A DNA stretch of 56,468 bases from Bilabrum cf. latius. Taxonomy: Eukaryota. Location: NCBI GenBank assembly GCA_965178125.1, contig OZ237750.1, positions 1,116,001 to 1,172,468 on the forward strand, written 5' to 3'. This document shows positions 3 through 51,704 of the stretch, piece by piece (within the stretch, counting starts at the first letter, position 1; each line of letters begins with the position of its first letter). Both the position numbers and the translations under genes were made by a program. A model generated the notes under the pieces. The model worked only from the letters and a program-made list of their open reading frames with translations. It was not told the origin of the DNA and searched no databases.

Positions 3-896
3 CCGGGCCTCGACTCGGCGGGCATACGCATGAGCGAGGAGGAGCGCAAGGCCCGGGGGATGGCTCTGCTTGGGGGCGGTGCTCCTTTGCGAGACGGGCT
101 GCTGCTGATGGCGGGGGCCTACCTCTCGGCTGGCACGGGGGATATCCACCGGTTCCTGGGCAAGCACCACGTGAAGCCGGGGGGAATCGAGTGGCTCAAC
201 GGGGAAAGCGTGGTGTGCTGGTTCCCGGACGAGGGCGCGGCGGGCCGGGCCATGGCATCTCTCAGCCAGCCCGTGCCCGTGGTGGACGGCGTGTCGCGGG
301 TGCCCCCGGTGTGGAGGGAGGCGGTGCGTCCGCTAGTCAAGGGAAAGACGGACCGCTATGCGACCAAAGGCAAGCGCACCTTCGTGTGGATGCGACCCGC
401 CACGGAGCACGACTCGGCAGACCGGACCGTGAGGACAAGGGGGGCTGGCTCGCACGGCACCCGCGCTGCGAGAGGGAGGGGGAGGGGGAAGGAGGCAGCC
501 GGGAGAGGTGGCAGTCGGCGGGAGCGTGGTCGAGATGCAGCGGGCAGGTAGGGGTGGGTGAACGGCCGCAGTGAGGTCCGCCAAACGGCTGGCTCAAGGT
601 CTGGCCCTGGCTCTGGCCCTGGTAGGGGCAGCGGTGGGCTGTCGCTATCGGAGCGGCTCATGCTGGGGCTCGAGGCATCCAGGCCAGGGACCGCAGGCGG
701 GGCTTCCTCCGAGAAAAGCAGCTCCAGGAAAAGGAAAAGGGGCAGGGGGTTTGATTCGGGCGATACAGGGGGCAGCGCAGCCCCGGGCCCGCCTGGCGGC
801 TCCAAGGCGGCCTCCTCGCAGGGCGCCGGCGGTCGCGAGGAGCCTTCAAGAAGATCGGACGAGCCGAGCGCCGCCAAGAAGGTTCGAACGGATTGA
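3..896 (+). CDS. NCBP3: NCBP3-like (nuclear cap-binding protein 3 / DUF2414) protein, 5'-partial; reads through TAG at 549-551
   Basis: IEWLNGESVVCWFPDEGAAGRAMASLS and WMRPATEHD resemble the NCBP3 RRM-like motifs IEWLDDTSCNVVW..ATRAL and FMRFAT..D. ORFs 30..551 and 558..896 share a frame and are split only by TAG; the gene ends in TGA. Confidence 0.65.
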
Positions 897-1111
897 AATC
901 CATGCAGGTGCATTGTCCAATGCGTTTGGGTGTGCAAGTGGCAAATCAAATGTTTTGCGTGTATTCAATTACACACGAATCCCGGGCGGCAGAGCATACT
1001 TGCCGGCCACCCTCTGCAGGAACTGCGGGGGAAACGCCGACGAGGGTCTCCACACAAGCAGGGGGAACACGCATCCAATCGCAATCCCGTTGAGCGCGGA
1101 CGATATTCCTC

Positions 1112-1570
1112 TCACTGCAGCAATGGCAAAAGGGCGAGTCGCTCACGTGGGGCTACTGAAGCAGGCAAGGATAGTGGCCAAGGCAACATGCGGTGCATGG
1201 TCTCACAACGGTACGACAGTTCTCGACGGGATACCATGTTAACTTCATCCGCTGAAAAGGGATTGTACTCGAAATAGGAGTACGAATGTTCTCCAGGGTG
1301 CCACGAAGTGTCCCTGCGTACAAGTTCAAAGTTCACTCGCGTGACAGCCATCTCTGCCACCTTGCAGGCGACTGCGACCCTCAAGGCTGGCCAGACCCGA
1401 ACTCGGTGCTTCATGAACACCCCCAAACCAATCGCAAAACCAGCTACGGATCCAATCAAATGCCTGTGCGTTACGATGCGCCATTTCCGGGAGTCTGCCT
1501 CGCTCGCATCGATAAGCTCGTCTCTGCGCGCATCGTGGAGCACCCTTTGTAACGTTACCTCGTCTGCCAT
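1112..1570 (-). CDS. Hypothetical small membrane protein
   Basis: 152-aa ATG-initiated ORF with a hydrophobic segment (LIGSVAGFAIGLGVFM), divergent from the TMC gene. The 3' end could be spliced (GTGAG at the stop). No family recognised. Confidence 0.5.
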   Translation of the reverse strand: MADEVTLQRVLHDARRDELIDASEADSRKWRIVTHRHLIGSVAGFAIGLGVFMKHRVRVWPALRVAVACKVAEMAVTRVNFELVRRDTSWHPGEHSYSYFEYNPFSADEVNMVSRRELSYRCETMHRMLPWPLSLPASVAPRERLALLPLLQ

Positions 1571-1729
1571 GGCAGAATTAGTTTACGTTCATTCTGCGGC
1601 CAATTTTGTTCGTTCACCTTTTGCTTGGGCCCACTGTGAGGGGATTGGGGTAGCTGTCATCACACGCCATTTTCAGTGGATCACAAGCCTTCTTTCTATT
1701 TGCTGCCCCAGGAAGCCCCAAAGCGACTC

Positions 1730-4285: not shown

Positions 4286-7200
4286 ATGGGAAACACCGTG
4301 CCGAAAGGTCAAATAATCGATTAGCGTCCCCATGAATCTGCCGGAGATCTTATCAAAGGGATCCAAATACGGAACTGCGTTGCCGACAACAGATTCACCT
4401 CAGCGTATAGGTGCACTGCTCCGGACGGAGGGGAGGCTTTACTGAAGGTATATAGCAAGCGGAGCGGTAGTTCAGTACCAAATAGAAATGAGGAGGAAGA
4501 AACCGCCATAGTGCAGACATCAAACGCCATGCGCAAGCTGAGGCGAGCGGTTGCACCTTTGCTCCATCCTCATCTCCTGCCGTATGCCAGGATCGAGAAT
4601 TCGAGCAAGCCGCACTCTGTGATGGTTACGAGATAGTGGGTACACACAACACTCAGAGATAGACTGCAGAAAAAGCAAGGTCTGCTGGAAATTGAGACAA
4701 GATTTCTGCTGTACCAGATGCTTGCGGCTCTGCACGAGGCCCACTCGAATGGGATCACGCACGGTGACGTTAAGCCAGAGAACGTGCTCATAACGTCGTA
4801 TGGGTGGGTGTTTATTGCAGATTGGGCGCTACATAAGCCAGTGGAGCTGCAGGCCGATAATCCAGCTTCGTTTTACTATTTTTTCGCTCCTCAAGCTAGC
4901 CCGTCGTGTCGACTCGCCCCAGAGCGTCTCGTTGAGAATCCTCGGCGCGGTGCTGCGGGCTCTATATCATCGACACCTTTACACGGTGCCCGCAAATCAT
5001 TTGGTGGGAGCACGGCTGACGACGGCACCGCGAGCGAGAGCTCCAAGGGTCGTACCGCCAGCGCCCTGCACAGCGAGGACGGGTAGGGTGCAGATACTGA
5101 GGGAACGTCGCTCCTTGATGCGGCGCACCTAGTGTCTGTTGCTGCTTCGCAAGACTTGCACAAGCTAAGGGAGCTCGACGAGGCACTTGGGCTGGACCCG
5201 TCCAGGGGCTCCTCCCCGGCAGGTCATCGGCCGAGTGGGTCCGAGCTGCGGTGCAAGGCAGACATTTTTGCCATGGGCTGTACCGCGGCGGAGCTGCTTG
5301 GTGGTCCGCATGCATTCGGCGGCATGGATCTGCCCGCCATGCTGCAGTATAGAAGAGGCCACGTCCCGGGTGCACTCGTGGATGTGCTGCGAGCCGTTCC
5401 ACCCGGTGCAAGGGCCGAGCCCGCGGTAGAGGGGGCACCAAAACCAGGCGAAGGGTCTAGCGCAAGCTAGCAAGGAGGTATTAGTTCAAGCTCCGGTCTC
5501 CAGCCTGTAGTGGGCCCTGGTCGGTCTCCTCGCCAGCTGGTGGCCCACATGCTGAGGAGGCTGCCGGAGTCCAGAGCGACTGCAGCCGAATATCTTGGTG
5601 CTTGCACGGGGCCTGGCCGACTGTTTCCGCCTGCTTTTAGGGATGTCTTGCATCCATTGCTGGGCAGTGCAGTGTCCCACCCCGGTCTGCAAGACCCTGA
5701 TGCGAGGGTGTTGCTGCTGGCGAGGGCCTTCCCACGATTGCTGTTGGAGCTAGCGGAGGCGGTGGACGAGGCAGGACAAGTCGCCATTGCCGGGATTTTG
5801 CAGGACCAGGATGAAGAGCTCGACCGGCAGGGCAGGAGCTCGCTGCGGCAGCAAGGGGGGATGAGCTGGGCACCGCCCGAGGATAGCGAGTGGTGGTGGG
5901 ACGTGGATGTGCATCACGATTGGGCTAACGGCGCAGCGGACAGCTCAGAAGTCAAGCAACACGATCAGACCAAAGGCCCTTTGGATGCTTGGGTTGGACC
6001 AGAGCGCACACAGGAGGTCCCTTTGAGTGTAGGTCTTGGTCGGACAGGTACTGCTATCGATTTGTACATTCTGCGGCCGGTGCATGAGGCCAACCTGGCT
6101 GCGCGGCACAACATGCGACAGGTCAACGGCAGTGGTTCCGATCAGAGCTTGAGTACGGTATCAGTACCGCAATCCCCAAGTACCGTTTCCACTAGCGATC
6201 TTCTTGCCATGGTTGATGCCGAGTTGGCCGCGGGTATTGGTTCACAAGAGGATTGCTGCGAGCTTGTGGATGTTGCGGTGCCTAGCGGATCGTCGCCAGC
6301 CGAGCCCTCTGACATCGAGGGCACAGAGACTAGGACAAAGTGCTAGTTGAATGGCGAAATGCTGGCTCTTGTGTTGCCTCTGCTTACCTCAAGTATGCGG
6401 CACGTGTCTTCCGCAAGGTTGCGATTACTGTCCGTCATGCTGCTTGCCAGGCTGAGCTGCGTGCCCGGGATCTCGCAGACCTTCTTGTTGCGGTCGTCGT
6501 TGCCGTATCTAGTTGAAGCCGCTAGAGATGAGTCGGCGATGGTAAGGACGCACGCCCTGGCAGCGGTTGCCTGCTTGTCTCTCACGCTCCAATCTAACGC
6601 GCAGGAGGACACGTATGTTGTACCCCACTATGTACTGGAAGGCGTGGCGCACTGCCAGGATGACCCGTGCACCGTAGTGCGAGAGTGTTATGCTGCCGCC
6701 CGCCCGATGCTCTTGCTTGCGGCGAGGGCTATCGCTGAGTCTGCGGCCTCAGGATCGGCTGCAGCTGCGCTCTCTTCTGTAGAAGAGACAGGGGAGAGTA
6801 TATCCGCTGGACGGCAATCGCTAGCCCCAGACTTAGACGTACAGCACATGATGCGGTCTCTCGCCATATAGAATGAGGATTGGCTGCTTCGTCTTGGCAT
6901 CATGCAGCCAGCTCAGCTCGTCAGACCTTCGAGCGCGTTTTCTGCCCTGATGCATGAAGCGCCCCTCCCAGCCCACAAGGAGGCTATATTGGCACTGTGG
7001 TGCGTGCTGGAAGCATCAAATGCGCAGGAGAGGGAAAATGAAATGCCAGAGCGAGCGAGAAGCAGAAGAACTACGAGCGAACGTTCTTGGGCCGACTACA
7101 TCGAAGAGGCCGCTGGCCGTTCGTGCACAGACTCGCACTCTCTGCATTGGATGTACCACACGGTCGGCTCTTCCAAAATCCCACTTTTTTCTGGGAGATT

Positions 7201-10200
7201 AGGGTGGCACGCCGTCTACCCTCGCCCTAGCCTCTTAGCGGATGAGTTTGCAACAAATCATGGAACGCACTTGCGGCATGTTTCGTAGGCGCGGGGTGCT
7301 CTCGTCAGGAACCTGCCAACTCTCGCTGCTGCTGTGGGATCTGATTTCGCGGAGCATCGGGTATTTGGCACAATTATGAAGACATTCAAAGATAAAGACC
7401 CGGGCATATCGTAGAGTGTGTCGTTACAAGCGGTACCAATGGCTCGGCTGTTGGGTCCGAAGCAGACTTGTGGAGACTTGCTAGAGGAGCTAGCCAGAGA
7501 CGTTGGCGCGGCAACTGAATTCCAGAGCGGGGCAGCTCTAGATGCCATTGCAGAGTTGGTTCAACAGGGATTACTAGGGAATTAGCCGTTTTATCACTCC
7601 CGTGGAAGCAGGCCATCCGAGAGAGCGAAGTCGATGGATGTCGATCGGCGAGACCATGCAGGGGGTGCGACCGCGATGCAGTGGCTACAATTGACCGCGT
7701 AGCGGTTGCCCGCGGCGTTGATCGCAGACATCCCCAGGTTTTGCTTTTTGATGCTGCACCCGAGCAACTGGGTACGAAATCCAGCCTCTCGGCTCCTTGC
7801 TGCGATGGCTGTTTCTCTTGGATGGCCTGAGGCGCAAGCTCACATGGAGGAGCCGCTTGCAGTAGCTGCAGGTGCGGGCGATGCAACGAACGCACCATTG
7901 CAGTCCGCCTGGGGATATTTAAGGCAGTCTTTGCGTGTGATTGAGCAGCAGGATGCTAGCTTGCAAGCAGCTGGGACTCGAGCGGCAGTTGCCGGTTTGT
8001 CTGGGCTGCTACTGAAGATAGTGAGGGCTACTGCGGCTCGTCGTGCAGTGAGGGCGGCGTTGGCACGGCTATGCGATGCTAAGCGCTCTGTGGAAGAACA
8101 GGCGAGAGATGATGTACTTGAGTAGCTGGATGAAGAGACGGCACAAAGCGTACCACAGCGAGCGGAAGACGGACCTCTCGACTTCAGCTCCAGCGCTGAG
8201 AGCGATTCTCATGAGCAGCCACGACGCAGTGCACCATTGAGTACACTGGCCCTCAGCAAATCTCGCCAGCCTCCGAAGTCCTCTGCAGCTGAAGTGCGAA
8301 CGCTGGCTTTACTGCTCCACCCTCAGCTGCAGACTGTATCTGAAGCTGTCTGCAGGGACGCAGAGCTGCTTGACTAGCTCGTGTTTGCGGCCCACAGTGA
8401 TGCTGCGGAGGAAGAGCTACAGGCGAGGGTTCGAGGGGCCCTCAGGGAAGCCGGGGCAAATCTCTCTGAACAAGAGGTGGCCCGAGTGGCGTTCGAGTCC
8501 TTCAAGCCGCGACTTGCAGCACGGCAGTACCCGTACACACCGCAGGACCTTGCGAGTCTACTCCCGCTGGCGGCTCATGTCCCTTCCACGAGCTTCGTGT
8601 CGCTGCACGACAGGCCACCTGAAAACGCAAAGGCACTAAACTCATCAAGTACCGTATATACTGCTAAGCAACTGTCAGCGAAATTTGCGTATGGTGCTCC
8701 CCTGGCTGCATGTATTGAGAAATGGTGCCGCGCTGCAAGCTCAGGTGCTTCAGACCTACCCATCCCTGGGCAGAGGACAAGCCTGGCGATTAGGTCGCCA
8801 TTGTCAATTACTATTCGGTGTAATCGTTCTGTCGTGCGACTGGCACGCTCTGAGCTGGACGGTACTGTATCTGACTCTGCCATGCTGGAACAGCAACTCT
8901 ACATGCGTGCTGGCCGTCGGTTGCGCCGGTTGGATCTCGGACTTGGCCTGTTCAATCTAGCAGCGTTGGCACGGGTTGGAGATAGTACACCGGCTGAGGT
9001 GTTCCGTCGCACAATCTTGCAGCGTTTATCGCGGTCAAGAGGACATGCAGGCTCAATCGCCGGCACGGCTCTGTCATCGGACGCAGCAGACGGACAGGCG
9101 AAAGTGTTTACGTCCCAAGCCGCTAGGAACCTTGACCGTTCGCTCGATGAGCTGAGCGACGATGAAAGCGAAGACAGCGAATCGAAGGCTGAGTCTGACA
9201 TGAGGTTATATGGCAGTACGCGCAGGTCGCAGTGGAGGTGTGGAGGAGGGGAACGCCGGGACCCCCTGGATGCCAGCACAAGGTACATGCTAGCTGTGAG
9301 CACCGCAATCGCACGGGGCGTCGCAGCCGAGGCCAGTGGCTTTGGAAAGCCGGACACTGTGATTGCAAGTGCAGCGGAGACCGCCATATCGCTTACTCCT
9401 GCGCATAGAGCCTGGGCGTTCGTGCAGTTTGCACAACGAGGCGGCAACCCAGTGGATTTTGCTGGAAGCCCCGCCAGGACTATGGCTCAGCTTGGAGTCA
9501 AATCAAGCGCTGGCCTGCTCGACTCGGAGAGTGCACTAAAAGCAACGCTAGGGGCAGCGAACGAGATCAGAAGAAGCGAATCCGAGACTCGGAAGCCGTC
9601 CCCGTTGCACCCCAGCGCAGGATGCACCGTGCCCCTGCCACCCCTCGCATCCAGCGGAGGCCCAGCCGGACTGGTTGTTGCTGCACTGGCTGATACGTGC
9701 CGTGTGATTGCCGCAGCAGACGGCGCAGACACCAACCAGATAGAGCTGGGGCGAACTGCGTTGCTAGATGATGCTGCCTGCCGGTCTGCTGCAGGTGCTG
9801 CCATTCGAGTGCTGCGAGACCTGAACTGCGAGCCCGGGACACTGCCCGGCCTGCTGCCACTCACAAAGGCCGGACTGTCGGTCCGCAACACCGCCCGGCA
9901 TGGACAGCGATCTTCTGTGGACAAGAGGTAGAAGGGGGATAGTGCCGGCGTCATGATCGCAGGTAGTGCTGTGGCTGTCGGCGGATACTTTGGAGATGAT
10001 AGCCAAGTGTCTACCCCTCGACCTTCTGTCGGCACCCCGCGGTTCGGTGCGGGATCTCGTGGTGATCCAAACGCGCGATTTAACGAATCTAGCAGGGGTT
10101 TCCCAAGTGGGATTTTGTCTGCCTCCTCAAGATCATAGCTTGCTCACGTGCATCGGAACCGGGAGTCCGTGCTTGCACCAGTGTCTTAGAGAGTGTTACG

Positions 10201-13200
10201 TAGTGAGTCTGGCAAGACAGTGCTGCATCATCCCCTATGGAGTGTTCTCGGGCAAGTAGGCGGCTAGGCACACTCTATTGAGGGTGTTTGCGGTCTGGAG
10301 GGCCTTGCATATAGGTCCAAAGGTCGTGTAGTTGACTTCACCTCCCCAGCCAGCCTGGCATCGCTTCGCCGAGTCGTTGCTGCGCTTGATGTGCCTGGCC
10401 TTGGCCCAAACTTTGGTAGCCTCAGTGCTCGTGCTGTGGCCGCCCACGCTATCGCTCACCCTGACTTGGGGGCATCAAGTATGCTTGGGTCTGGATCCGC
10501 CCGGCGAGCTGCCCAGATGTCTGGTCTCGCAGCTGGACAAACCATGCTCGTATCTGGACTGGCCGAACAGCCATCGCCGTTTAGTTCGGGGGCAGTGTTG
10601 CTGTCCAGAGCCATATCAGGGAGGCTGCGATCTGCAGCCTGCGGGCTCGCCATTCTGCACGAAGTCCAACGCTCCTCAGCTGGAGCATAGCAGAACGCCT
10701 CATCGCCAGCAGCGGGACTAGAGGCTTCCAAATCCGTCACATCGCCCGGAGTGGCCGCTGCATTTGCCAGTTTGAAGCGCAGTGCTGCCGTGATCGCTGG
10801 CGATGAGCTACAGTCTGCGCTGCAGGCTGAAGGAGTTGATCAGATTCCATCTGGCGCTCAGGATGGCAGTGCTGTTCCAGTGTACTAGGATGGCGACGGC
10901 ACCGGTAGGGGTTAGAGCAGTGCGCCGAGGGCCGCCGATCTCGCCATACTGGGAGGAGCAGGAGCAGCAGTTCTGCAGGAAGAGGCGAAATCCGGATGGT
11001 CAAGTACGCACTCGCACGCAATCGGAGTGTCGTCGCCGATGGCCATCCTGCACAACATGGTGCATTCGAACTTCGACAAGAGTGGTTTGATGCGCGATAT
11101 TGATGAGATTGCCCTGGCTCACCGTTCCATCGGGGCCAGCCTGCACCCGGTTAGTGCAACCGATGCTGGTATTCAGGATGCCAGTCGCGGTGGATTCACG
11201 GTATTTGAATCGGGGCTGGAAACTGCGCGATATCATGTCGCAGGCCTGTCAAGGTGGCCATCTCGAAGTTGTCCGCTGGATGAGATTGCAGAGCTTGTCA
11301 ACAGCAACGCTGGCATCTAGCACCCTGATGTGGCCGACACAATGCTTCACCTTCCCACTGCTGCTCCCTCAAGCTCAATGGTGTTGGCTCGTGCTAGGTC
11401 ACAAGGTCTTGCTGGGATCAACTTAGCGATGGTAGGTAGTGTTGGAGGTGTGAGCGGTCTCGCTGCAACCCGGCTGGCGGCTACCATGGCTGGTGTGCAG
11501 CATCTGCAGGCCCTTGTCAACGCAGTCATGACGCCGCAGGCAGCTGCTAGTAGTGCTGTTGAGTTATAGCGGTCTGCCATGGACTCACAAGCGTTTGAAG
11601 AGGGGGCGGCGGCTGCTGTTCATTTGCCACCCATTGGCTCCGTTGTCTCTGTGCTGTAGGGGTATGCCTCCGCTTGCACTGCTGCTGTTAGGGCCCAGCA
11701 AAGAATTTCAAGCGCCCTAGACGGATAGTTGGCTCGATCCGCAAGTAGTCTTGGCATAGAAGGATCCCGCCTGTCCGTTCACCAGCTTGCCGATCTGGTA
11801 CAACGGAGATCTGACTCGAACCGGGAGCGAGAGGGGGAAGTATCTCCTTACTTGGCGGTCATGCCGGTGCAATCTTCTGCATAGCCTTTCGTCGAGACTG
11901 TAAGCAACATTCGGGGCTCTTCAACGGGATCGAGACGGCCAATTCTGGCGGCTGCTGGGATCGCAAGCAATTCGCTCCTGCCGCCGTACATGGCCGTGGC
12001 ATACAATGCTGCTGGAGTCAGCCTAAATTCATGTGCTGCCGCTGCATCGGTGTCATTCGCAGCCAGGACAATGCGCAGATTGCTGTAGAACGGATACAGC
12101 TATCCTGTTGCCAGCCGAACTGCTGGGGCGATCAGTATCGCCTCCGCACAAGGCTGGTGCGGAGCTGCCGCTTTCCTTTCTCCAGACAGAGCTGGGCGAA
12201 GACAGCTCGAGCCAAGCGCTGCTGAAAGTGGTGCAATTGATGATGCGCGCGCCGCAATCGCACAAACGTGGGTAACGTCAGTAGCTGACGGGCCTGCTGG
12301 TCCTACCGTGGGGCGTCGAGCTACCGAGGCGATCTTGCATCGCGTATTCGAGCTCATGGCACATGCAGGGACCTGGAGCAGCGCGACTGCCTGCTCACCG
12401 TGCGGGATTCCATCGGAAGCAATCCTGGACTTGGTGCCATCTGCCGTTTCCAATGTTCTGCCTCAATTTACATTTGGAGGCCTGCCGCTGCTTCAGCAGA
12501 TAGACGTGCCGGCCATCGCCTATCGACCCGGGATGCTGCAGTCCACCTTCGGGGTGGACAAGCTGCACCAACAGCCGTCTGTGGCTGCCCCAGCTGCCAG
12601 CTTGACAGGCCCTGAATCTCGCAAGAAGATGATCGCTTATTCGGTGTCGCAGCCTAGCTCAACACTCGGAGTACCTGCAGATGTTGGGGACGGCCGTGGC
12701 TCCGCAGCACCCGGGGTCGAGTCATTTGCTGAACTTGACTCTTTTGGGACAGTCCCCAGCAGTGGTAGTTCGGGGCCTGATGCACCATTCCAAACACAAG
12801 CGGCAGATGAAGCTGCCCAGGCAAAGCTAGATCGGCGCGGCCCAATTGGCATGAGACCGGCAGCCGCAGCCATTATGAAGGCCGCCCAGGCGGAGCAGGT
12901 GCAGGAGGAGCTGGACGAGTTCAAGAGGTTCCCATTCGGGTCGCGCCCGAGAGGAGTCGTTCTAGGGCGCTTGCTTGCGCATGCTGGCGTTATCCGCGGG
13001 GTTTGCACTTCAGAGGATGGATCTTTTGCCGTGTCTGCCGGCGAGGATGGCACTGCATGCGTGTGGGATGCAGTAGGGCTCGCTGCTCTCCGCGGGTTCG
13101 CCGGCCTGCCCCCTCGCGCGCAAGTGTCAATCGAGCGAGCAGCGCGCCACCCACTCGCCCGGTACACGCCTGCTTGGTCATTAGCCGATGCTTCTGGGAA

Positions 13201-17004: not shown

Positions 17005-17190
17005 GCTGCAAAGCCTATGTCTGGCTCTCGGTTCGATCGGGTCCGTTGACTCCGATTCCAGTTCTAGGTTCCGTTTGGTCATCATCACTGGCAGATAACT
17101 TGTGAAGTTGTAGTCGATTGGTCGCGACGGCTGGTCGCACCTCCAGCTATACTAAACAACACGCCAGTTCCCCTACGGTCGCTGTAGCAG

Positions 17191-30536: not shown

Positions 30537-32003
30537 TCACAGTCGCACGACGTAGCTAGAGCTCTGAGTAACGTACCGCACCCACCTCTGCGGCTTGTAA
30601 GCAGCCGCCGTTTCGCTGATGCGGAGGTACTTCACCTGCAGCTGGGACACGTTGTACATGGGCACCTCGAACTAGAGCGCGACTGGACCGAGCTCCTTGC
30701 GGGTGGCGCTGTTACCTGAGGGCTTCGACAGTGTTATGTGAGTCCGCAGCGTAGCCTCCATCCCACCTTGCAGCTTCTCGATGAGCCAGGACACTCTCTT
30801 GCCTTTAGCGTCGTACTCTGCCACTTGCGTACCCTCCTTCTTACTGCTAGAACTGCCTGCCCCCGATGAAGCCCCCGAAGCAGCCCCACGCCGCGCACTG
30901 GCAATCCCAGGGCCGCCCGTCACCACCGGGTTCACCGTGGCGGCCGCGCTGGGGACTGGGAACCGCACCACGATATGAGACCCCGCACTGGATGCAGGGA
31001 TATCCGCTCTAACCTTGAGTACAAAGTCCACCCGCGTGGGGGAGATGGTCTCCAAGTACGGCTGCACCCTGAAGGGGGCTCTGAACTCGCCCGCCACTCG
31101 ATAGGTCATCACGTTGAACTCGCCGTCCGGAGGCACCAAGCTTAGCACACGCCCCGTCTCGAACTCGGAGAGATTGACGCAGTCGTGAAATACCGCGTCA
31201 TCAAGGCACACCTGCCCGCCGTGCGCGTGCTTCGCTGCCTCTTTACCGATGAGCAGGTCCGGATTGAGGGCCATCCGCAGAGGGGGGTTACCGGACAAGA
31301 AGCTCTTCATGACGATCGCGCCATCAACGGTTGAATTCAGCACGTACCCACTACTATTGATCAGTACAGAGATCCGCTCAAGTATATCAACGTAGATCTC
31401 ATTCTTCTTCGAGTCGGTAGTTGATCGGTTCACAGCCGAGTGAGGTACCGTCGTTGGTTTACGCAAGGAAAACCGACTGGCTGAAGGAACAGGGGCCACC
31501 ATGATTGGGGTGTTGTGCACGTACATCTTCAGTGCCTCCGTGGACGTAGCCTGTGGATACCCAAAGTCGAGCATCTCATCGAGCAGTTCGTAGATCAGCA
31601 CGAAATTCTTCCGGATCGCTTCTTCGCTCAGAATCCCGCAATAGTCCTTGCACACCCCTACAATCCTCTACAAAACCTCGATGGTCGTGGCAGGGCTTAC
31701 GTTAAACTTCGTTGTTGCAACGAAATAGAGGTTGCTTCGCTTCACGAATGCAAACGTTACATCCTCAAGCTGGAACACTGGCGGAGGCTCGCCCCCCTTC
31801 CAAAACTTTACAGCGTGGTAGAAGTCCTCGCTGGAACCCTTGCTGACGTCGGAGCGCACTGCGACGTTGGCATGTCTTGCAAAACTCCTGCTAGTGTCCT
31901 GCTGCAGAACGAACGCGAAGCAACGAACCCGATGCTTCAACTCACTTTGTTTGTTTATTATAGTGTCTCCTCTTGGCGACAGCACAAAAAACTGAGATAA
32001 CAT
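30537..32003 (-). CDS. AP4M1: AP-4 complex mu subunit; intron about 31859-31945
   Basis: MLSQFFVLSPRGDTII, VKFWKG, KDYCGILSEEAIRKNFVLIYELLDEMLDFGYPQ.TSTE.LK and C-terminal GPVAL*FEVPMYNVSQLQVKYLRI..RWVRYVTQSSSYVVRL-TGA. TAG at 31668 and 30672 falls inside conserved domains. Confidence 0.93.
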
Positions 32004-34106: not shown

Positions 34107-34206
34107 AGCCTTCGAAATGGGGGCGCGATGGCTTTGCGTGCACCAGCATGCGCTGCAGCTTCACCGCAGGCCTTGCAACTTTGAAAGGTCGAATACGGCC
34201 TCCAAT

Positions 34207-40600: not shown

Positions 40601-41374
40601 TAATCCCAACGGAAGAAGGCCACCAGGCTAGCAAGCAGGCCTGCCGCCCCGCCCAAGTCCCATGGCACCAGCTCGGACGCTGCAAGTGCACCAGAGTCGC
40701 CCGTCTGCTTCGATGGAAGTGCAAGCTACATGCTGTGCACAGCTGCCTGCACGAGCCAAGCAGGTGTATCACCAGGCAGCAGCTTACACGACTGGCAATC
40801 ACCGCTTTCGTGCTGCACGAGTCCATCGTGCGTCCGCATGGCTTCCCAATCAGCTTGCATCTCCGGATACAAGAAGGCTGGAGGTCCCACGTAAATACCC
40901 TCGCAACTTGTGCAGGACACCTAGGCAGTTGTTAAAGCAAGTATGACGCAATTCGTGCACTCGGTGACTTGAATAATAGGCCTGCGATGCATGACAAGTC
41001 TAGAGACAACCGTCGCGTCAGTTCATGTATGCAATCAGTCAGCGCTGTAATTGCCACAAACGAACTCACGAGGATATCAAGAGCACACACCCTGTGCAAC
41101 CTGAGACCCTGGCGAGCTTGGAAGACCGGCTCGCGACCAGGCATACGTTGCATCTGGAAATGTTGACTTGCTGCACCAAATTTCCACTTGTGTTGGATAC
41201 GTGAGCATATGCGAAACCTTCTATTTCGGAAGACCTGCGGATCGTGGAGTCCAGGGCAGCACACTGATCGTGGAGTCCAGGGCATGCACCCGACAGCTTC
41301 GAGCGGCTCAAGCAATCGCATGGAGAGCCTCACGCGATGGAGCCGTTTTCGATGAAAATCCTAGAGTATTCCAT
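37687..41374 (-). CDS. Large protein with a TBCC/RP2-like beta-helix N-terminus and an EF-hand-like motif; probably two 5' introns
   Basis: One frame from about 40980 to 37687 is interrupted only by TAG. Cys-rich repeats ARVSGCTGCVLLI and IIQVTECTNCVILAL are TBCC/CARP-like, and FFRWD*DADGVLGESDL is EF-hand-like. The 5' exon structure is inferred. Confidence 0.55.
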
Positions 41375-41636: not shown

Positions 41637-44600
41637 TCACCCTAGCTACCAATCAATTGCATCCAATAAGACGCCCATGCTACCCTGAGGAGCGTCCTTC
41701 AATTTGGCATTACCTTCGAGCCGCAAAATGCTTTGTAGCGCCACCCGAAGCTCGCCCATCTCTCCCTCATTTAGCAGCCTTGCCTTGTTGAGAGCATGAA
41801 TTGCGTTGCGAGCTTGTCTGCCGCCTTTCTGCTTGCCGTGCAACTTGTGGCCGCGTCGTACAAGGGCTTCAGAGCAAGAATCCGCAACAGCTGCAATATC
41901 AGCGAAGTCCTGGCTGGAGGCGTTGCTTCGTGACGACACCTTACGGGCCGACAGCAACGACGTTACGGCGGCAAGGTCACTGCAAGCCCTGAGCACAGCA
42001 ACGATGTCCTCAGTGAGCAACGGTACGCTCGGGCTCAAAATTGCGCGTCTACACATGCCTAGACCCAGCAGCGCGTGCGAGAACGATGCCTCAGCAGCAC
42101 CAACCTGGAGGTCGCCGGACGCAAATAGATCGCGTGTCGCTCTCGCTGCACTGCGGATCAAGATGGGAAGGCCAAACACTCTGCCACGCATGCCAGCATG
42201 CAGACCAGCAATGTCGCTATCATGGCCTGCCTTTCTAGAACCAGCATGGCGCATATCATGCAGCAAAGCTTTGCAGCCCCACAAGCGCGCTTCAGCGAGA
42301 TGATGATTGATTCCGACAGATTGCCTAGTAAACTCGACCGCACCGCGAGGAAGCCAGCAATTTCGCAAGGTAGTATCAACATCATCGCGCTACTTAACCT
42401 CGGCGGCTTCGCTAGCTCGGCTTAGGTCGGGCGTTGACTGATTACCTTGCACAAGAATCTCCATCGCTGTGAGGGAGACTCTGGCAGCCTCTACCTAGTC
42501 AATCACCCCATTCTAGCTATGGCAATCGGCTGCTGCTGCAGCAATTATAGCGAAACCTGGATCAGCGCTGGTCGACCTGCTGCGATGCTCTGGCTCCCAC
42601 CGCGCACACATCGGGAGAAGAGCATCTCTGCTGCGCAGCAGGCTGGAAGCAACATGCATCGCAGAGTCCCTTGCGCCTGCAGCAAGATGAACGACTGAGT
42701 CTACGGCAGCATCCAGCTCGAGCTCATCAAACAAGCGTGCCGCTGGAGAGCCCACCAAAAAACCTGATCGGTCCAGCTCGAGCAGGGCGAGCAACGTTGG
42801 CAATGCGGCTGAGGTCGTCTCTAGAGAATCTGCCGAGGCACGCTTCAATAAAGCAAGCTCAATCTCGACCAGGTCTTCCGCCTTGGAGATCACCTCTTCG
42901 TAATCGAAATTATCCCTCATGAATCCGTGCTGGATCTCACCATAAAGTTCATCAAAATCGCTGGTGGCCTTCAACGTAGCACTCTGTGCGTTGCGTAAAC
43001 GTGGCAGAATGCTCTTCCGCCAAGCGGCCGACCACCCAAAGCAACCGGTTGCCTGCACGTCAACGAAGGCCTCGTCCATCTGTAAGGGTACATCGGATGG
43101 AGCCCTGAACACTGGGGACTCGACCTGCAAGGTCTGACAGACTACCCGTAGTACAGCCCATGCAACTGCAGAACGTCCGACAAGCACCCAGTTCACAGCA
43201 TCGACAAGCTACAGCTAATCAGTTCCGCGTTCGCTGGATAGACACTGCGCGTCAGGTAGAGCCATGCATGCATCCGCCGGGACCTCAACCGCGTCAAACC
43301 GACCCGCGGAGAGCTGGTCACGCACAGAAATCCATGGCTGCGCTCTTCTTGCGGCAGTGTCCCCGGCCCTAAGAAGCCCTGTCAGCTCATTGATAACTTC
43401 CAATTGTTGCTGCTGACTCAAGCCAGAGGTGACATCAGCAGCTTGCGTATCAAGCCTCGCCCACTCGGCAACTAGTGCTGGTACGCAGGCGTAGATAAGC
43501 CCAAACTAGGATGCCGCAGCCATTGTCTGCGAGGATGCGGCAAGGCTTCCACACATATCTGAAGTCGAATAAACTATGCCCGGATTCTCTGACGTGGGTA
43601 AGCTTGCGTCGTGAAACACTCTAGAGTCCGTCGACCGGGTCGCCGTCGATCCTGCTGATTCAGGATCAGACGACTAGTCAACCTAGGCTAGCAAATCTTG
43701 AATCTCCTTGTTTAGCGCCACAGGCAGCTCCTCTGCATCATCGTTCGAGCTTCCATTCAGCTCGGTTGCAGTCTGGGCGGCCGCGTCAGAGATCTTGAGT
43801 GGGCTGCGAAATGGAGTGCGTCGCCTTTCGCAGGGTAGAGTTCGACCCAATGCAGCGCTCGAGGCAGAGCTTGAATGTACGCCGGATGCGCCCTGTCCTC
43901 GACTTCGCGGTGTCAACGCCTATCGAGGGACGGACACGCCGCCAACCTTGCGTTTCGACTGAGTACCGCGGCTTGGCCAGGCTTGTAACCGCTTCAAGTC
44001 CGGAGCCTGGTCGATGTCGACCATCCCCCGAGCGAGTCTGGCCACGCTTAGCAAGCCCTACAAACCCCAATTCTTACTTTGGTCAGCGTCTGCAGTCAAC
44101 TTGTCGAGCATGGATTGTGCTGTCTCTGCATGCGCAGACCCTGCCGCGTCGAATTGACCTTCAGTGTGCGTGTTGCACAACGCGACTGCAACCGACCAAC
44201 GTATTGCCGAATCCTTCAATAACACGACACCGTCTGTGTCTACGCTCCCTGCTGCATGGTCACTATCTGCAGCAAGCTGTAGCGTAGCGTGCCACAGTTG
44301 TCTGGCTCCCTCAATGCCTGCATTCCCGTGAGTGAGAGCTGCTGGGACCGCTGGGCCTAGCACAGGGTACACACTATCGAGCATCTCAATTACATCCAGA
44401 CCGCTTAAGTGTGTTGCTCCTTGTACTCTACGCTTCGTAGATAAGAGAGCAAGCGTTGAAGCCCCGCTATGAAGTTCGTACGTCAAGCCGGCCCGAACTT
44501 GGCGAAGGAGCGCTTCGAGGCCAGCATGAATGACGGTACTTGCTTGGTCGGTTGGTAATGCACTGTGCAGCCGAATAGCGGAACTGCCGAGTTTCAATAG

Positions 44601-47600
44601 AGTGAGGCGGTCAATTGGCACAACAGAGTGCGAAATCGCCCTACTGCTTGCATCAAAGAGATGGTTCCAACGCTGACCGAGGCGTTCAAGCAAGGCATGC
44701 CTAGCCTACTTGTCAGCGACACCGGCAAGGTCCGTTCTTGCCGGTCCGGCCTCTGGGCGAGATCGCGGCCGACTCGTACACGCAAGACTAGCCGATACAG
44801 CTTGGCTAATCAGTGCGCTGTTCCTAGCTATCCTACTGGCTGCATCATCCTGCACTTCGAACGCGGCTGCACATGCATCCAAAGCTGAGCTACAGTCCAG
44901 TACAATTGCCTGTAACATACCTTCTGTGGCACTCTTCTCCGCCGCAGACTGCAAGGAAGCCTCCAAAGACAAACCAAGCAGCTACATGCTTGCTTCTAGC
45001 TACACATCTGCCTATGATGCATCTGAATCTTGAACGTTTGCCCGTTTCAACATCTCGGTTGCCAAGGGTATGGAATCTCGAGCTAGCTACACAGCGGCAC
45101 GCTCAGGCCTGCTCAACTCGCGCTAGTTTAAGTCGCGAAGGACCGGTTGAAACGCACTCCATGCCAGCCGAAACTGAGTAGTAGGCTCGTGCCGATGCAC
45201 TGCAGCAGCGACGGCAACTCGGTACGTGGCTAGCACAGTGTCGTCTGGCGGTGCCGACTCCAAGAGCTGCATCAAAGCCAGTATGCCATCACTTCGTAGC
45301 AGTGCGCTGGTACTTCCATACCTACTTAGTATGGCTGGAAGATATGCGGCAACAATACGCTTTGCCTCACTTGCATGAACACCACTAGATACCGAGTCCA
45401 AGAGTGCTGGGCACGCAATTGCCAAACACTTCTCGGCGACGAGTGGGTACTCCAAAACACCGCTGCGCCAAGCACGCATACTCGACATCAAGACCTCTTG
45501 CATTGTGTCAGATTGGACGGAGTCAGCCAGCACGTCAGTGGCTTCGGCGGCACACCGTCGTGCTTGCGGTGTCGAGGCCGATGCAGAACTCCGCATGGCC
45601 CGCGAAAGCAGCTCGGCCTGCAAGACTTTGACTCCCGCAGCAGCTTCAGTTGAGCCACGTGCGATCCGCAGGTACTCAGGCAGCAGGCGCAGGCCTTGCC
45701 AGGTCTGCATCGAGCTACCCGAATGGATCGATTCTGAGCTTCCAAGCAAGAACGTACTCGCAATAGATCGAACAACAGCGGGCTGGCAAAGTGCGCTTGC
45801 TGTCGCTCTGGGGCTGACAGCCACTGCATGCATGATAGAGGTAGCGACATCAACTAGACTTCCTATCTCTGAGGAGTGTCCACCAAGCTGTTTGACCCAC
45901 TGTGAACTTTGTGGACCTAAATCTCCTAGATCTGTTGGATGGAAACTAGTACCCTTCTTGACGCATTCAAGGCTGTGCATTGCATTCCAGAATCCCATCA
46001 GAATGTATGCACGGGCAGCTGCAGTTTCAACCTACTCCATCTCGACCGCGCCAGGCTACTAGAGGCGCTCTAGGAATCTTGCACGCTCCTCTGAGCACAA
46101 GAGGGCAGCCGCAAGAAGTGTCTACGATGCCTTTCCACACCTGGTAATCTTAGACCACAGGAGCTCAGCTGCCTAGTTGTTCCCATCGAAGTGATGGGCT
46201 GCTTCGACTCTCCTGATCAGGTCCTCTCGTACTCGCATGACGTGGTATAGAGCAGTGCCGGTCCGCATGAACATGCCAAGTGTTGGCGGTGCATCGATTG
46301 CCAGTGCCCGTTTAGCTCGTGGAAGCTATTGCCACAGTTCCGCCTGCACGTTCACCGGCGGCAACACTCCACTTGGGTCCTCCGTACCATCGTATCCCAG
46401 GAAACCATACTCAGAGTCGGTTTGAATATCCAGCACTGCAAGACTGAGCTGTTTCTCCATTTCGTGGCTCTGTCCCCCATCGCTGGACTGCAGTACGCCG
46501 CTCCAACACTCCAAACTAGCACACAAACTCTCAGCTGCACCAACGTGCACCATAGCAACCTACCACGGAACCAGGTTCTAAAATGACCTGGCAGGCTATG
46601 AATGATGGAATCGATGAGAAATTGACAAAGATGAACCAGTAGACATGAGACGCTGCAGCAGGGCAGGCTCCTCCAGGAGCCTCGAAACGCTAGCTCGAAA
46701 CGCAGCGCAAGCCAAGGACGCTTGCTCCATGCAATCATTCAGACTAGACTTCCACCGCGGGTGCAGGTTCGAAGCTGCTCGCAGCTACAATTTGGATTGC
46801 TCAGTAGCTGCTGAGTATGAAAACCCGGATTCAACCAGCCCATGTGGTCCTAGACAACCACCTGGGGCTCCAAGCTACCTAGATAGCTACTTGATGTAGG
46901 TGGCAAGTCGAGCAGGATTCGACACCATTCCAAGCCGTATGGCCTGCCGCAGCCTATCGCACCCAGAGATTTGCAAGTTGGCTACATACTCCAATACCGG
47001 CATGCAACAGCCCAAGAACACATGCCCGAGGTCTGAATTTGACGCAACTGATGTCTAATCGGTTGCATACGTACGAATCACGGCAGTAGCAGCTTGCGCG
47101 ATTGAAACCAACTGAGGGTGCAGCACTGCAGATGCGAGCGACTCCTTGTAAGGTGCACTCATGGACCTTGCTTTGCTTACATCCCCGCCAAAGGCTTGAC
47201 TGCCTGCTGCTCTAACAACAAGACTAAATCGGTGCATTGCGTCTCCCGTGTCGTCGCGCGGTGGACCAAACTTGCCGGAGGATAGCGCAAGCACTGTACT
47301 GTCTAAAAGTCTCGATGTGGCCGCATTTTCGCCCTCAGAAAATGCCAAGACGCTGCATCGTGCGATTGTGACCAAGCAGTCCTGCAAGGACGCCTGCGCA
47401 ACAGCACCATCGCCAAGAGCATGCAGCCTAGCTACGTGCTGTGCACATATAGCTAGCATCCCGCGGGCTTGCTAGCCCTCCCTTCCCGCGAGAACCTCAT
47501 ATGGAACCCGACAAAGCGTGTGCAATAGCCTGCACGGGACACGATGCAGGACTCCGCCGTGCTTGAGCGCATCTTCGTGGGTCTTGACGGCACCAGCCAG

Positions 47601-48284
47601 CGCGACTGCTGCATCAGCAAACTACACCACGTCAGCAGAACTTCTCACAGACGCATCAAATGCACTAATAGCATGTGATAATCGTACTACTGCCCCCTAT
47701 GCCCACTGCTCGCCGGCATGTGGTCGCAGTGCGCGGAGGACCTTGAACACGTCCTTGACAGATCCTGAACTACCCCTTGCGCTCCTTGCGGCCAACAAAG
47801 ATGCTGCCTCTGCGGCAGCAGCCATGGCTTCTTTATATTCACCGTGCGGGCTTGCAACGAGGTTGTTGAGAATCCAAAGTAGTCGCGGTAGAGACCAGGC
47901 CTATTGAACGTGTGCGACGGGCTCAGAAACCAGGTCCTGCACTTGCAATCGCGCGCTCTTTCCGATGGACTTGCAGACATCTCCCCAGCGAGAATCAACT
48001 CGAAGCTCAGGAGTCCCTATGCCCCCACCGCTGCCGCTGCCGTCCTGCTAAACGACTCCTTCGCTGGTGGCTGCAACGTTCAACTGGGCCCGCTCTCTGC
48101 GCTCAGCCGCACTGCCGATCAGTTCGTCGCCAATAACTGCTGATCGGGCCGCATCTGTCTATATAGCGCCATGAACTACCTTCTTTGCTATCATCCACAG
48201 GGTGTCGGCATGCATCCACGAATCAGGCACACCTTCACTCCACTGCAGGACGTCTGCAGCGGAGGAGTGGGGATCCTCTATCAT
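41637..48284 (-). CDS. Very large (at least 2200 aa) Ala/Leu-rich, probably alpha-solenoid protein of unknown family; 5' end uncertain
   Basis: ORFs at 41646, 42513, 43215, 43683, 44058, 44706, 45123, 46326 and 47055 share one frame and each ends at TAG. The first TGA downstream is at 41637. No diagnostic motif recognised. Confidence 0.7.
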
Positions 48285-48623
48285 GAGGGAACGCAACGAA
48301 TTTGCAGAATTTTTTTCATCCTACTTGTGCGAGAAAGACTCCCTTGACAAGCCGGACGTAAGCCTTACCACCTGGAGAGCAGGTGAGCGAGTTCGGCACC
48401 GGGGAACCATGCGCTTGCATGTCGCCAGAATGCGTCGCAGCCGCACAATACGCAATGTCCTCAGCATAAACCGAGTAAAAACTGATAGATACTTCCAAAT
48501 TAAGTCAAGTACAAACCACAGATGTGCCGAGGTTGGAGAGATGTTCGGCCCGGGGCAGGACACAACTTGCGTGCAATGCACCTGCTGGCAGCGCATGAAC
48601 TGAAATCATCAGAACTGAAGCAC

Positions 48624-51600
48624 TCATCCAAATCTCAAGCTCTTCTCGAAGAGTCCGTCACCGCACGGCTTCAGTTGATCCCCACTGGCTGGCAGGTTGC
48701 CACCAGCCTGGCCTTGCGATACCACCTTGTGCCCAAGCGACACTGCCCGCGCTGCTGCCGAGTCGACAAGCGAGCTGAGCTCAGGCCCTGCGCCACAGCG
48801 GCATTTCTTGGTCCGCACCGGACGAAACGACCTGGAGACGTGGCTGCACCTGGAGCAGTAGTGGAAGTAGCATCGCACTCTCTTGCCGACCACCGAGTGG
48901 CCCAGCCCAAGGCATACTTCAGGCTTTGCCCGAGTGGCAGAGCCGCACTGCTTGCACTACCAAATAGTAGCGTACTCCACGCGCCTCTGCCCTTGCCCAG
49001 CTTCAATCGCAATCGACACGGCTTCATCTGCGCGCTCCAACGCGTCAAGGCGCTGGCCCAGTCTGGTAACACCAGCGGCTGGCACGTCACGCCCCGCCGC
49101 GGCACTCGAGCTTGCAGCCCGCAGGGCCTACATTCCCTCCAACGAAGACAGCGATAGCGGGGGTGCCGGCTTGCCTATCCCAGCCGCTCCAGCAGAGCGC
49201 TTCGGTTCACCAGCAGTGCTCTTGGGTGCCGGCTTGCATATCCCAGCCGCTCCAGCAGAGCGCTTCGGTTCACCAGCAGTGCTCTTGGGCGTGGGCGAGG
49301 GCGAGGCAACGGACAACGGGCTCTGGAACGGTCTATGCGCATCTTCTACGACTGTCCGGACAGCCGTAGTGTCGAGCTACGAGTCAGATGAGCCATCATA
49401 ATGGTTGCCACCTTCAAGGTTGGCATCGGAGTCTGAATCAACATCGCTGAGGTCGCCCATCAGAGGTGTGACACCACCAGACTTCTGAATGCGAGGTCGC
49501 TTGGAACCTGTACTGTCACTGCCCGCTGACCCCATCCTACCTGCTGGCTTGGCTCGTTTCGCTCCTATCGCTTCGCAATGGCTGATGGTACGGTCCTTCG
49601 CATCTCCAGTCTTGAGCCCTCCATGGCCAGCACCCGACAGTTCTCGAGCATGCGCAAGAATTGAAGCATCCACCCTACCAAAATCAAGTCGGGCGCGCCG
49701 CTTGGACTACGCCGGCGGCTGCTTTTTTTGTGGATTAGATTGATGGATCTGTGCCCTTTTCTCCTGCGCATCCCTCCTCAACCTCTCCTTGTCCTCCAGG
49801 TAACGCTGCATGGCGAGCGCCTTGCCTGGACCAGCCTCCCTGCGCTTGCGGTGAGCATGCAGCGTGCTGGAAATCGTGTCGTCGGGTGCTGTGATCGCCT
49901 GGCTTTCCACGGCAGCAGCCACATTCAAGGAACCCCGCTTCGACATACTCGCTCGCTTGGCTGCTGCCGCCTTTGCGAGCTTCACGGCTGCTTGCGTTCT
50001 TGGTGCCTCAGAGGCCCCAGCCTCGGGCTACACTGCCTTACTCGCGTCGGGGTCCAGTAGCCGCCCATCAGACCCGACGCTTATCAATTCGGTTGGTGAG
50101 AACGTCGCTGGCTTTGCTTCCATGGAACTTGGTGAACTTTTATGCTGCTTGCCGGCAGAGCTCGATATCTCCGTTGGTGCTTCACCGGTGCTGCTGCGTG
50201 CGCGATGCCCTGATGATCTTGCCATAATTGATCGTGTGGCAGCGGCTGCATCTCGTCTCGCAATGATGTCAAGATAAGTATATTCCTTGCCACTTGATCG
50301 ACTGCTTGCTGCATAGGAACCTGCCACTCCACCAGATACGCGTGGATTGTGACCCGCTGGACGCAAACCAGCCACCTGCGCCTGCGCCTGCGCCGCGAAT
50401 CTGGCAGCAGTCTCTGGATCAAATGAGCACCCTGCAGACGCATACTGACTCGCCGCTACATCAACTTTGCCGTGTTGTAGGCCGCGTCGCGCTGCGTGGG
50501 TTGCGATCTTGCCACGCCGAGAAGCAGCTGCGGATGAGCCGAAGCTCGTGAGATCTGACCGCTGCTTTACGGCTGCTGCCAGCTGCGATCGGCGGGCACC
50601 TAACTGCAATGCTAGCGGGTCACTCTACCCTGCCTGAGGGTGTCTTGTCTGGGTCGATGCGGGGGGTATGACCTACCTAGCCATTGCCACGCCCTGGCCA
50701 CGTGCAGCCGCTGTCGCAGTCTGAGCCATGTGGACGTGTGGCCCTCTGGCGCCCTTGGCGCGGTGGAGTGGCGCGGCTGATCGGCCCGTATGCGTGGTCG
50801 AAATGCTGCCATTGGCTGCCATGAGTTGCAGCTGGTGCTCCGGGCACAATCGACTGACTCGCGTATTCACTGCACGACCGCACGCGCGTGCTTCAGGCCG
50901 GCCGCCACCCGGTCCCCTGCCAACCTTGGCCGTGCAGCGTCCGAAGTCGGCGCAATAAGCGATTACTCTGCAGTTCGATGCATTGGCAACCGAGAGTGCA
51001 AATCCGGACCTGCTGCGGTCACCATGTTGCGGCGGGACCAGTGCCGGCGCGCGAACCGCAACGAGGGCACCTTCTCTGGCACGGCGCAGGACATCCACTG
51101 CTTGGTCGAAAGCGAAGAGAGCCACCTCGGATGCAAAGTCCGTAAGAGTCAAAACAAAATAAGGGTTGCCTCGCTTTGATTGCCGAGGCTGAGATCGATT
51201 CGCAACGCAGCCGAATAAGACAGTGCCTCCTGATTGTGCAGTTGCCGATGATCCGCTGGATGCCAGCAGCTTAGACCGCTGGGACTCGCTGCTCTGTATC
51301 AATTGAGACACGCCGAGGTTAACACCTGAAGTTGATTGACCTGCAGCAAGGCTATTTAGATTGACCTGCACCGAAGCCAACCGACATGTTCCTAAACGCC
51401 CAGGAATTGGACTCTTGGCAGAGGTTTCAACCCTGTTCGTGCCTCTGCTAGGAACTGCCTTTTTATCACTCCCACCCGAACTATGCATTGTTTGCTAGGA
51501 TTTCAGCTTCCCTTGCGGCAAAGAACGAGGCATACGACTTGAGGCGGCTGCCACCTTGTACATACCGCCCTTGTTCGTGTGGCTTAGAGGAGTTGCAGTA

Positions 51601-51704
51601 TACTTCGTGGTCCTGCGCTTTGACTTATCCACCAGTCCGCTATAAGATTTAACACTAGCTTCGGAACTACCTCCGGTCGTGGGATCGACCAATCCTGCGG
51701 GCAT
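48624..51704 (-). CDS. MCM10: DNA replication factor MCM10
   Basis: OB fold (VLFGCVANRSQPRQSKRGNPYFVLTLTDF..VALFAFDQA) and CCCH finger (DFGRCTAK..CGRAVN..CPEH). The C-terminal Zn domain W*CKQC..PEVC...GH...YCSRC...KCRCG joins them only if TAG is read through; ends TGA. Confidence 0.85.
49162..49289. repeat. 63-bp tandem duplication within MCM10 (encodes PKSTAGEPKRSAGAAGI.KPA twice)
   Basis: GGGTGCCGGCTTGC.TATCCCAGCCGCTCCAGCAGAGCGCTTCGGTTCACCAGCAGTGCTCTT occurs twice in tandem. Confidence 0.9.

Follow-up and report, generated by a model that had tools for sequence, protein, structure and literature searches.

The window, by which we mean the whole analysed stretch of DNA (contig OZ237750.1, positions 1,116,001 to 1,172,468; 56,468 bases at about 58% guanine plus cytosine, GC), holds about 20 genes, many of which contain TAG codons in frame, and the meaning of this codon is the subject of the present analysis. 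An earlier note on the same DNA had proposed that UAG is a sense codon, most likely for glutamine. Under the standard code the longest stop-to-stop frame of the window is 517 codons. Reading TAG as sense produces frames of 3643, 2322, 1111, 1046 and 832 codons, compared with a longest frame of 574 codons if TAA is read as sense and of 697 if TGA is. Frames of at least 300 codons add up to 19,745 with TAG as sense vs 15,954 with TGA as sense, and the rise in the latter total stems only from the lengthening of short random frames, of which there are many. Seventeen TAG-read frames, covering 15,126 codons and containing 150 TAG, 376 CAG and 212 CAA, form the basis of what follows. The genes and sites on which the argument depends are these (coordinates, strand, identity, basis):

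4286..14989, plus strand: VPS15-like gene, intronless, with its Met at codon 77 of the frame 4058-14986; 30 in-frame TAG; terminator TAA at 14987-14989 (frame, Pkinase/WD40, alignment with human PIK3R4 and yeast Vps15 from the Protein Data Bank (PDB))
4634..4636, plus strand: TAG in the VPS15 kinase domain at a conserved Gln ("RQ[YFH]"; alignments)
15056..16351, minus strand: PTEN C2-domain exon; 1 TAG (15470); TGA end
16264..17190, minus strand: PTEN phosphatase exon; TAG 16660-16662 directly ahead of the catalytic loop (Pfam, synteny with the metagenome contig L001)
19079..20995, minus strand: KH protein (three KH domains); frame with 6 TAG (Pfam, RNA)
21339..21962, plus strand: SmB coding sequence; TAGs at 21474, 21522 and 21831; TGA end (Pfam LSM, RNA contigs, homologues)
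29887..30486, minus strand: pterin-4a-carbinolamine dehydratase; TAG 30226 within the domain (Pterin_4a 3.4e-22, residues 80-172, the TAG being residue 87)
30537..32003, minus strand: AP mu gene; exon 1 31946-32003, intron 31859-31945, exon 2 30540-31858; TAGs at 31668 and 30672; TGA end (homology to solved AP-1/AP-4 mu chains to the last residue)
32136..34160, minus strand: DBR1 (lariat debranching enzyme) frame; 3 TAG (Pfam, RNA)
37690..41022, minus strand: 1111-codon frame, no Pfam family; 13 in-frame TAG; TGA end
41640..48605, minus strand: 2322-codon frame, no Pfam family; 37 in-frame TAG; TGA end (frame, fragments from a relative)
48627..51764, minus strand: MCM10-like frame (weak MCM10_OB); 8 in-frame TAG; TGA end

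A Pfam family is present in 12 of the 17 TAG-read frames. Matches were obtained to Pkinase and WD40 (VPS15-like), the PTEN phosphatase and C2 domains (DSPc, PTEN_C2), NUDIX, three KH domains, LSM (SmB), a glycosyltransferase, AP mu (Adap_comp_sub, 1.9e-70), DBR1, anoctamin/TMC and Pterin_4a; Sel1 fell under the cut-off and MCM10_OB was weak (E 1.4e-5, 25.3 bits vs a 27-bit cut-off). TAG lies within the Pkinase, DSPc/PTEN, LSM, Adap_comp_sub and Pterin_4a matches themselves. In-frame TAG codons were found at each of the sites named in the earlier note: 4634, 14735 and 14741 (TAG CAG TAG), 16660, 21474, 31668, 30672, 48957, 20558, 20549, 40600 and 30226, the last being position 87 of its frame. 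Two of the domains assigned there were not recovered, since Pfam reports neither a zinc finger near 48957 in the MCM10-like frame nor an EF-hand near 40600.

The VPS15-like gene provides the clearest single case. It had been described as carrying about 30 TAG and no TAA or TGA, and counting TAG/TAA/TGA in its 3643-codon frame gave exactly 30/0/0, with 40/11/45 and 46/14/85 in its other two frames. At the off-frame rate, the probability that 3643 codons are free of both TAA and TGA is about 1e-34.

TAG in transcripts and at gene ends

To examine the fate of TAG in RNA, one DNA-type run (X1) and three RNA-type runs (X5, X6 and X7), drawn from three studies, were compared with positions 18800-34200. 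The comparison used contigs and not raw reads, a level at which rare variants could escape, and across the contigs of all four runs it gave zero base differences from the window. The X5-X7 contigs skip five GT..AG introns and one contig has a poly(A) end at 22947, while the DNA run X1 is continuous through the intron at 31859-31945. None of the runs is recorded as RNA; that the X5-X7 contigs derive from processed mRNA we infer from their splice joints and polyadenylated end. The RNA-supported introns are:

21205-21334 (approximate), plus strand: intron of the SmB 5' untranslated region, joint 21204>21335
22488-22581 (approximate), plus strand: intron of a COX6A-like gene, joint 22487>22582
25177-25263, plus strand: intron, joint 25176>25264
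25366-25459, plus strand: intron, joint 25365>25460
31859-31945, minus strand: AP mu intron, joint 31858>31946

Within the compared region, 26 of the 29 in-frame TAGs (KH, SmB, orf23098, orf25418, glycosyltransferase, AP mu and DBR1 frames) are covered by RNA pieces, and they stand unchanged in the spliced contigs; coverage amounts to 5/6 TAGs for the KH protein and 3/3 for DBR1. The remaining three comprise 25430, which is in an intron, 32055, which is upstream of the AP mu start, and 19259, which is outside the listed pieces. The TAG codons are neither edited nor spliced out. Frame lengths, stop counts and retention in RNA all bear out the proposal that UAG is a sense codon.

The same contigs bear on the introns themselves. 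A CGCAG motif had been noticed at introns of this genome, and it was found at the 3' ends of all five RNA-supported introns, with the joints shifted by 1-2 bases. The introns measure 87-130 nucleotides, and CGCAG is an unusually extended 3' splice-site consensus. In addition, an X1 contig skips 661 bases (19257-19919, ends CC..CG, shorter side 21 letters) in the Gly/Gln/Tyr-rich tail of the KH protein, and loose ends of the same kind occur at 19340, 20964, 26152, 26170 and 27442, each in at least two of the three RNA-type runs. The skip and the loose ends are probably assembly-graph branching at low-complexity repeats and not biology.

Analysis of the gene ends points to the codons that remain as stops. 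TGA ends 16 of the 17 frames and TAA ends the VPS15 frame. The VPS15 TAA stands at a conserved C-terminus: a fragment from a relative (P0288) ends at that point, and L001 has TGA after its alignable C-terminus. Both the VPS15 and the PTEN of L001 end at TGA. In the AP mu gene, homology to the solved AP-1 and AP-4 mu chains reaches the residue before the TGA. No TAG terminator is needed by any of the 17 frames. Given CAA 212 vs CAG 376, a sense TAA would be expected dozens of times, but in-frame TAA was never seen, a lack that arises partly by construction, since TAA and TGA served as the frame boundaries. This sequence pattern is that of National Center for Biotechnology Information (NCBI) translation table 15, and it indicates that UAA and UGA still terminate, with UGA as the usual stop.

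Two other accounts of the gene ends have to be weighed. UAG might have a dual meaning, glutamine inside genes and a context-dependent end elsewhere, as in Condylostoma, karyorelict ciliates and Blastocrithidia. With about 20 gene ends visible, rare TAG terminators could be missed, and low-complexity tails after a last TAG, such as that of SmB after 21831, lie beyond a homology check. Yet 17 of 17 frames do without a TAG terminator, the homology of AP mu and VPS15 runs beyond their last TAGs to the TGA and TAA respectively, and TAGs are found at every distance from gene ends. We therefore consider a dual meaning unlikely. The second account holds that both UAR codons (UAA and UAG) encode glutamine, as in NCBI table 6, and that UAA is merely rare through high GC. 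UAR = Gln is the commonest stop-codon reassignment and has been reported in ulvophyte algae, hexamitids, oxymonads and Amoeboaphelidium (PMC5304391); moreover, just one TAA terminator was examined. Nevertheless, reading TAA as sense lengthens the maximum frame only from 517 to 574 codons, the dozens of in-frame TAA expected beside 150 TAG are absent from frames of up to 3643 codons, and the C-terminus at which the VPS15 TAA stands is common to two relatives, one of which has TGA. This makes a UAR code very unlikely.

The residue read at TAG

To identify the residue, TAG columns were compared with deep homologues and with relatives of the organism. Among deep homologues, the VPS15 kinase-domain TAG at 4634 was informative. 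It corresponds to Gln in human PIK3R4 (PDB alignment), and 122 of 144 diverse homologue representatives likewise have Gln in this column, in agreement with the RQY match that the earlier note had given for this site. Solved structures were otherwise set aside as a source of residue identity, the AP mu, PTEN and SmB columns being variable or non-Gln; the DBR1 TAGs lie outside the part aligned to a solved structure.

Relatives proved more useful. A close relative with 82-95% identity is known solely from gene fragments predicted with the standard code, and 8 of 13 such fragments stop exactly one codon ahead of a window TAG. One other fragment stops at the window TAA, two at window GAG/TCG, one at a window Ser, and one has an unaligned tail. 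Nine window TAG columns could be compared with this relative, of which seven hold Gln, one Tyr and one Lys; fragment P0286 has Gln at the VPS15 site 4634. Within the 2322-codon frame, the TAGs at codons 573, 577, 607 and 1516 are Gln in the relative's fragments (82-90% identity), and two of its fragments end directly before the TAGs at 670 and 1562. A scan of metagenomes with the 2322-codon protein found no relative, and a comparison of this protein with shorter proteins returned 4 fragments only, all from the close relative. For SmB, Gln occupies both TAG sites of the Sm fold in P0003, the closest relative.

A second scan of metagenomes, with P0277, yielded L001, a contig with a VPS15 orthologue of 46% identity in a 3072-codon frame that contains 36 TAG and no TAA or TGA. 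At a local identity of at least 0.5, 18 TAG columns could be compared between the two genes: three pair TAG with TAG, seven pair TAG with a CAG or CAA Gln, and eight pair TAG with another residue (Arg 2, Ser 2, and Pro, His, Phe and Met 1 each). In the PTEN of L001, Gln is the partner in all three well-aligned TAG columns. They include the site ahead of the catalytic loop, where the syntenic L001 orthologue has Gln opposite TAG 16660, and two L001 TAGs align to a window CAG or CAA Gln. Pooling the three relatives gives Gln in 19 of 29 well-aligned columns against a Gln frequency of 4.9% (binomial P 1.6e-18), with no other residue in more than 2 of the 29. BLOSUM62 sums over the same columns are 93 for Gln, 31 for Glu, 20 for Lys, -1 for Ser, -21 for Tyr and -53 for Leu. 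As a calibration in the same alignment, TAG was compared with canonical codons: the share of columns with Gln or TAG as partner is 56% for TAG and 38% for canonical Gln codons, and every other residue faces Gln in 0-14%. These alignments, together with the VPS15 column, indicate that UAG is decoded as glutamine. The glutamine assignment of the earlier note was upheld, although mostly not by the alignments cited there in its favour, the VPS15 RQY match being the exception.

Several observations weigh against this reading or against parts of it. Among 120 SmB homologues the column of TAG 21474 reads F96/Y15/W7/Q1/H1, the single Gln being that of P0003, and the column of TAG 21522 reads R99/K13/Q4. 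In solved structures the AP mu TAG 31668 corresponds to Tyr in AP-1/AP-2 mu and Ser in AP-4 mu, and TAG 30672 to Lys, Asn or Ser; the site of PTEN TAG 16660 is Glu in human PTEN. The close relative has Tyr and Lys in two columns, each codon one base change from TAG. In the unfiltered L001 VPS15 alignment Gln accounts for just 11 of 52 non-TAG partners (Ala 7, Ser 7, Arg 6, Glu 4), though it is still the top residue at about fourfold over the 4.9% background. The RNA label of X5-X7 is a guess, and X5 is marked "probably DNA". One gene end and the lack of in-frame TAA are what carries TAA as a stop. Finally, neither the window nor L001 contains a tRNA gene, and eRF1 is in neither; the window has no Rfam match.

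The residue columns just listed could be taken to favour UAG as a sense codon for something else. Precedents are Leu in the rhizarian exLh, Ser in Scotinosphaera, and Tyr, Glu or Lys in certain ciliates. The SmB site is Phe, Tyr or Trp in 118 of 120 homologues, and the close relative supplies a Tyr and a Lys. Against this stand the 19 Gln among the 29 well-aligned partners, the BLOSUM62 maximum for Gln, and the closest SmB relative with Gln at the very same site. Another residue is accordingly a highly improbable choice. It is also hard to credit that no true reassignment has occurred and that TAG is passed by inefficient readthrough, with a near-cognate tRNA-Gln(CUG) competing at a codon that eRF1 still recognises. 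Readthrough by near-cognate tRNA-Gln is known in standard-code organisms (PMC13192750), but genes with 30 and 37 TAGs would give almost no full-length protein unless each event were nearly complete. TAG accounts for 150 of the 738 Gln-type codons, and relatives conserve it. Artefact or decay, in the form of pseudogenes, CAG-to-TAG sequencing errors, or editing or splicing of TAGs, can be dismissed: although TAG 25430 is in a spliced-out intron and 32055 and 20981 are probably upstream of start codons, one stop type of three is affected, no base differs in contigs of four runs from three studies, 26 of 29 TAGs are kept in spliced transcripts, and TAGs occur at identical positions in relatives.

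Further features of the window

The VPS15-like gene is unusual in size as well as in codon content. It extends over about 3570 codons here and over more than 3072 in L001, where it occupies positions 3-9221, vs about 1350-1450 in human and yeast. Long inserts rich in Ala, Ser and Gly separate its kinase, HEAT and WD40 parts, and its 10.7 kb contain no intron. Several metagenomic VPS15 homologues are likewise big (2685-3884 residues). In both the window and L001, VPS15 is followed by PTEN on the opposite strand, with order and orientation kept (window 14989-17190 vs L001 9221-11255), and the PTEN catalytic exon is much better conserved between the two than VPS15. The 2322- and 1111-codon frames look like lineage-specific large proteins. 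At 17438-17880, in the frame of the NUDIX gene, lie a perfect hexamer array of the (Ala-Gly)n type (CCTGCA x20) and, as a second element, a 21-bp repeat x7 that codes for AAADPS-like units. Two additional features enter the comparison with other lineages:

22369..22789, plus strand: COX6A-like gene, two exons, no TAG, ending in TAA or TGA
55881..56468, plus strand: terminal TTAGGG array of about 98 units, chromosome end

The COX6A-like gene is strongly covered in the RNA runs, with poly(A) added near 22947. The terminal TTAGGG array marks a eukaryotic chromosome end. Inward of it, the subtelomere consists of a 64-bp repeat x8 (52372-52891), TTAGGG x60 (52968-53328), a 155-bp satellite x6.8 (53390-54440), TTAGGG x55 (54440-54769) and the 155-bp satellite x6.8 again at 100% identity (54831-55881), followed by the terminal TTAGGG x98. 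The interstitial telomere arrays and identical satellites could be real architecture or a long-read assembly error.

Decoding and relation to known codes

Taken together, the results are best explained if the window represents a nuclear chromosome end from an aerobic, GC-rich, intron-poor microbial eukaryote whose cytoplasmic translation reads UAG as glutamine and terminates at UGA and UAA. We hold this explanation, as a whole, to be very probably correct. Its mechanism is modelled on other UAG-decoding eukaryotes (PMC5304391). A dedicated tRNA-Gln with the anticodon CUA, which pairs with UAG and not with UAA, would decode the codon. Such a tRNA would be one mutation away from tRNA-Gln(CUG), and a glutaminyl-tRNA synthetase that tolerates the CUA anticodon would charge it. 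An eRF1 that recognises G less well at the third position of the stop codon would leave UAG to this tRNA; in Iotanema the eRF1 substitution T32G in the GTS motif was proposed to lower affinity for UAG (PMC5304391). The code change predates the split from the relative with the 46%-identical VPS15 and therefore marks a clade, of which at least three members have been sampled, and not a single strain.

The code variant itself is already known. PMC11687900 attributes UAG = Gln alone to Iotanema, Protocruzia tuzeti and two phyllopharyngean ciliate lineages, and lists the rhizarian exLh (Leu) and Scotinosphaera (Ser) as further cases in which UAG is split from UAA. The summary of UAG-only codes given in the earlier note agrees with that source and with PMC5304391. 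Iotanema spirale (Fornicata) provides the nearest parallel, a non-ciliate with the same code (UAG = Gln, UAA and UGA as stops) and the same predicted mechanism of tRNA-Gln(CUA) plus altered eRF1. It is, however, an anaerobic metamonad with UAA as its main stop (PMC5304391), whereas UGA is the main stop of the window (16/17 frames). The window also differs in its expressed COX6A, an aerobic respiratory-chain subunit. Anaerobic fornicates are not known to have this chain. COX6A and UGA as the main stop rule out an Iotanema identity.

Protocruzia tuzeti and the phyllopharyngeans share the codon table of the window, NCBI table 15 (PMC11687900). The window differs from ciliates in its TTAGGG telomere, 58% GC, introns of 87-130 nucleotides and long Ala/Gly/Ser-rich proteins. 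Ciliates are known for telomeres of the G4T2/G4T4 type and AT-rich genomes. No ciliate was found among the named best matches, and the organism is unlikely to be a ciliate. The aphelid Amoeboaphelidium protococcarum is another non-ciliate that uses UAG as Gln, with both TAG and TAA reported as Gln (PMC6299283, PMC5304391), but Amoeboaphelidium genomes have about 40% GC (PMC10608142) vs 58% in the window, where TAA is not sense. Amoeboaphelidium is tied to algal cultures, and sequence words of the window occur in algae/protist metagenome runs; the shares are small, and we did not use this as evidence. An aphelid identity was rejected on the differences in GC and in TAA, and on the lack of a named near-identical match even though Amoeboaphelidium proteins are in NCBI. 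In exLh and Scotinosphaera UAG is decoupled from UAA in non-ciliate nuclear genomes as it is here, but the amino acid differs (BLOSUM62 sums of -53 for Leu and -1 for Ser vs 93 for Gln).

The affinity of the organism was considered through named matches and a tree. For SmB the named best matches are a Nannochloropsis-containing cluster, Ichthyophonus and Saprolegnia, and those for VPS15 comprise Racocetra, Phytophthora, Aphanomyces, Pythium, Hondaea and Zingiber, a mixed set that leans to stramenopiles through its oomycetes, Hondaea and the Nannochloropsis-containing cluster. A FastTree analysis of the VPS15 kinase domain with 110 sequences, six of them with an organism name plus one MMETSP (Marine Microbial Eukaryote Transcriptome Sequencing Project) transcript, gave no supported affinity for the query; the branch that carries it together with the close relative is very long, with 2.8 or more substitutions per site to every other leaf. 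The near relatives in protein collections are all Logan, ENA (European Nucleotide Archive) or JGI (Joint Genome Institute) sequences. A search of the full-text literature, with most subscription journals outside its range, found no account of UAG = Gln in any GC-rich non-ciliate like this one. The change probably had an independent origin here. The claim of the earlier note that the reassignment may be both independent and undescribed is plausible but unproven. We suggest, tentatively and at somewhat less than even confidence, an independent UAG-only change to Gln in a lineage from which no departure from the standard nuclear code has been reported, common to the members of the clade, which are represented so far only by SRA and metagenome contigs.

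Reassignments that split UAG from UAA are few in nuclear genomes (PMC11687900), and each new independent case tests the repeated use of one route, tRNA-Gln(CUA) together with a weakened eRF1. There are also practical consequences. Gene callers that assume the standard code shatter the genes of this clade, whose VPS15 appears in public protein collections solely in pieces of 77-452 residues, broken at TAG, and annotation, phylogenomics and binning should use table 15. The organism evidently yields both RNA and a telomere-bearing assembly and therefore could become a tractable system; if the proposed independent change is true, it could be the first tractable non-ciliate system for the separation of UAG and UAA decoding.

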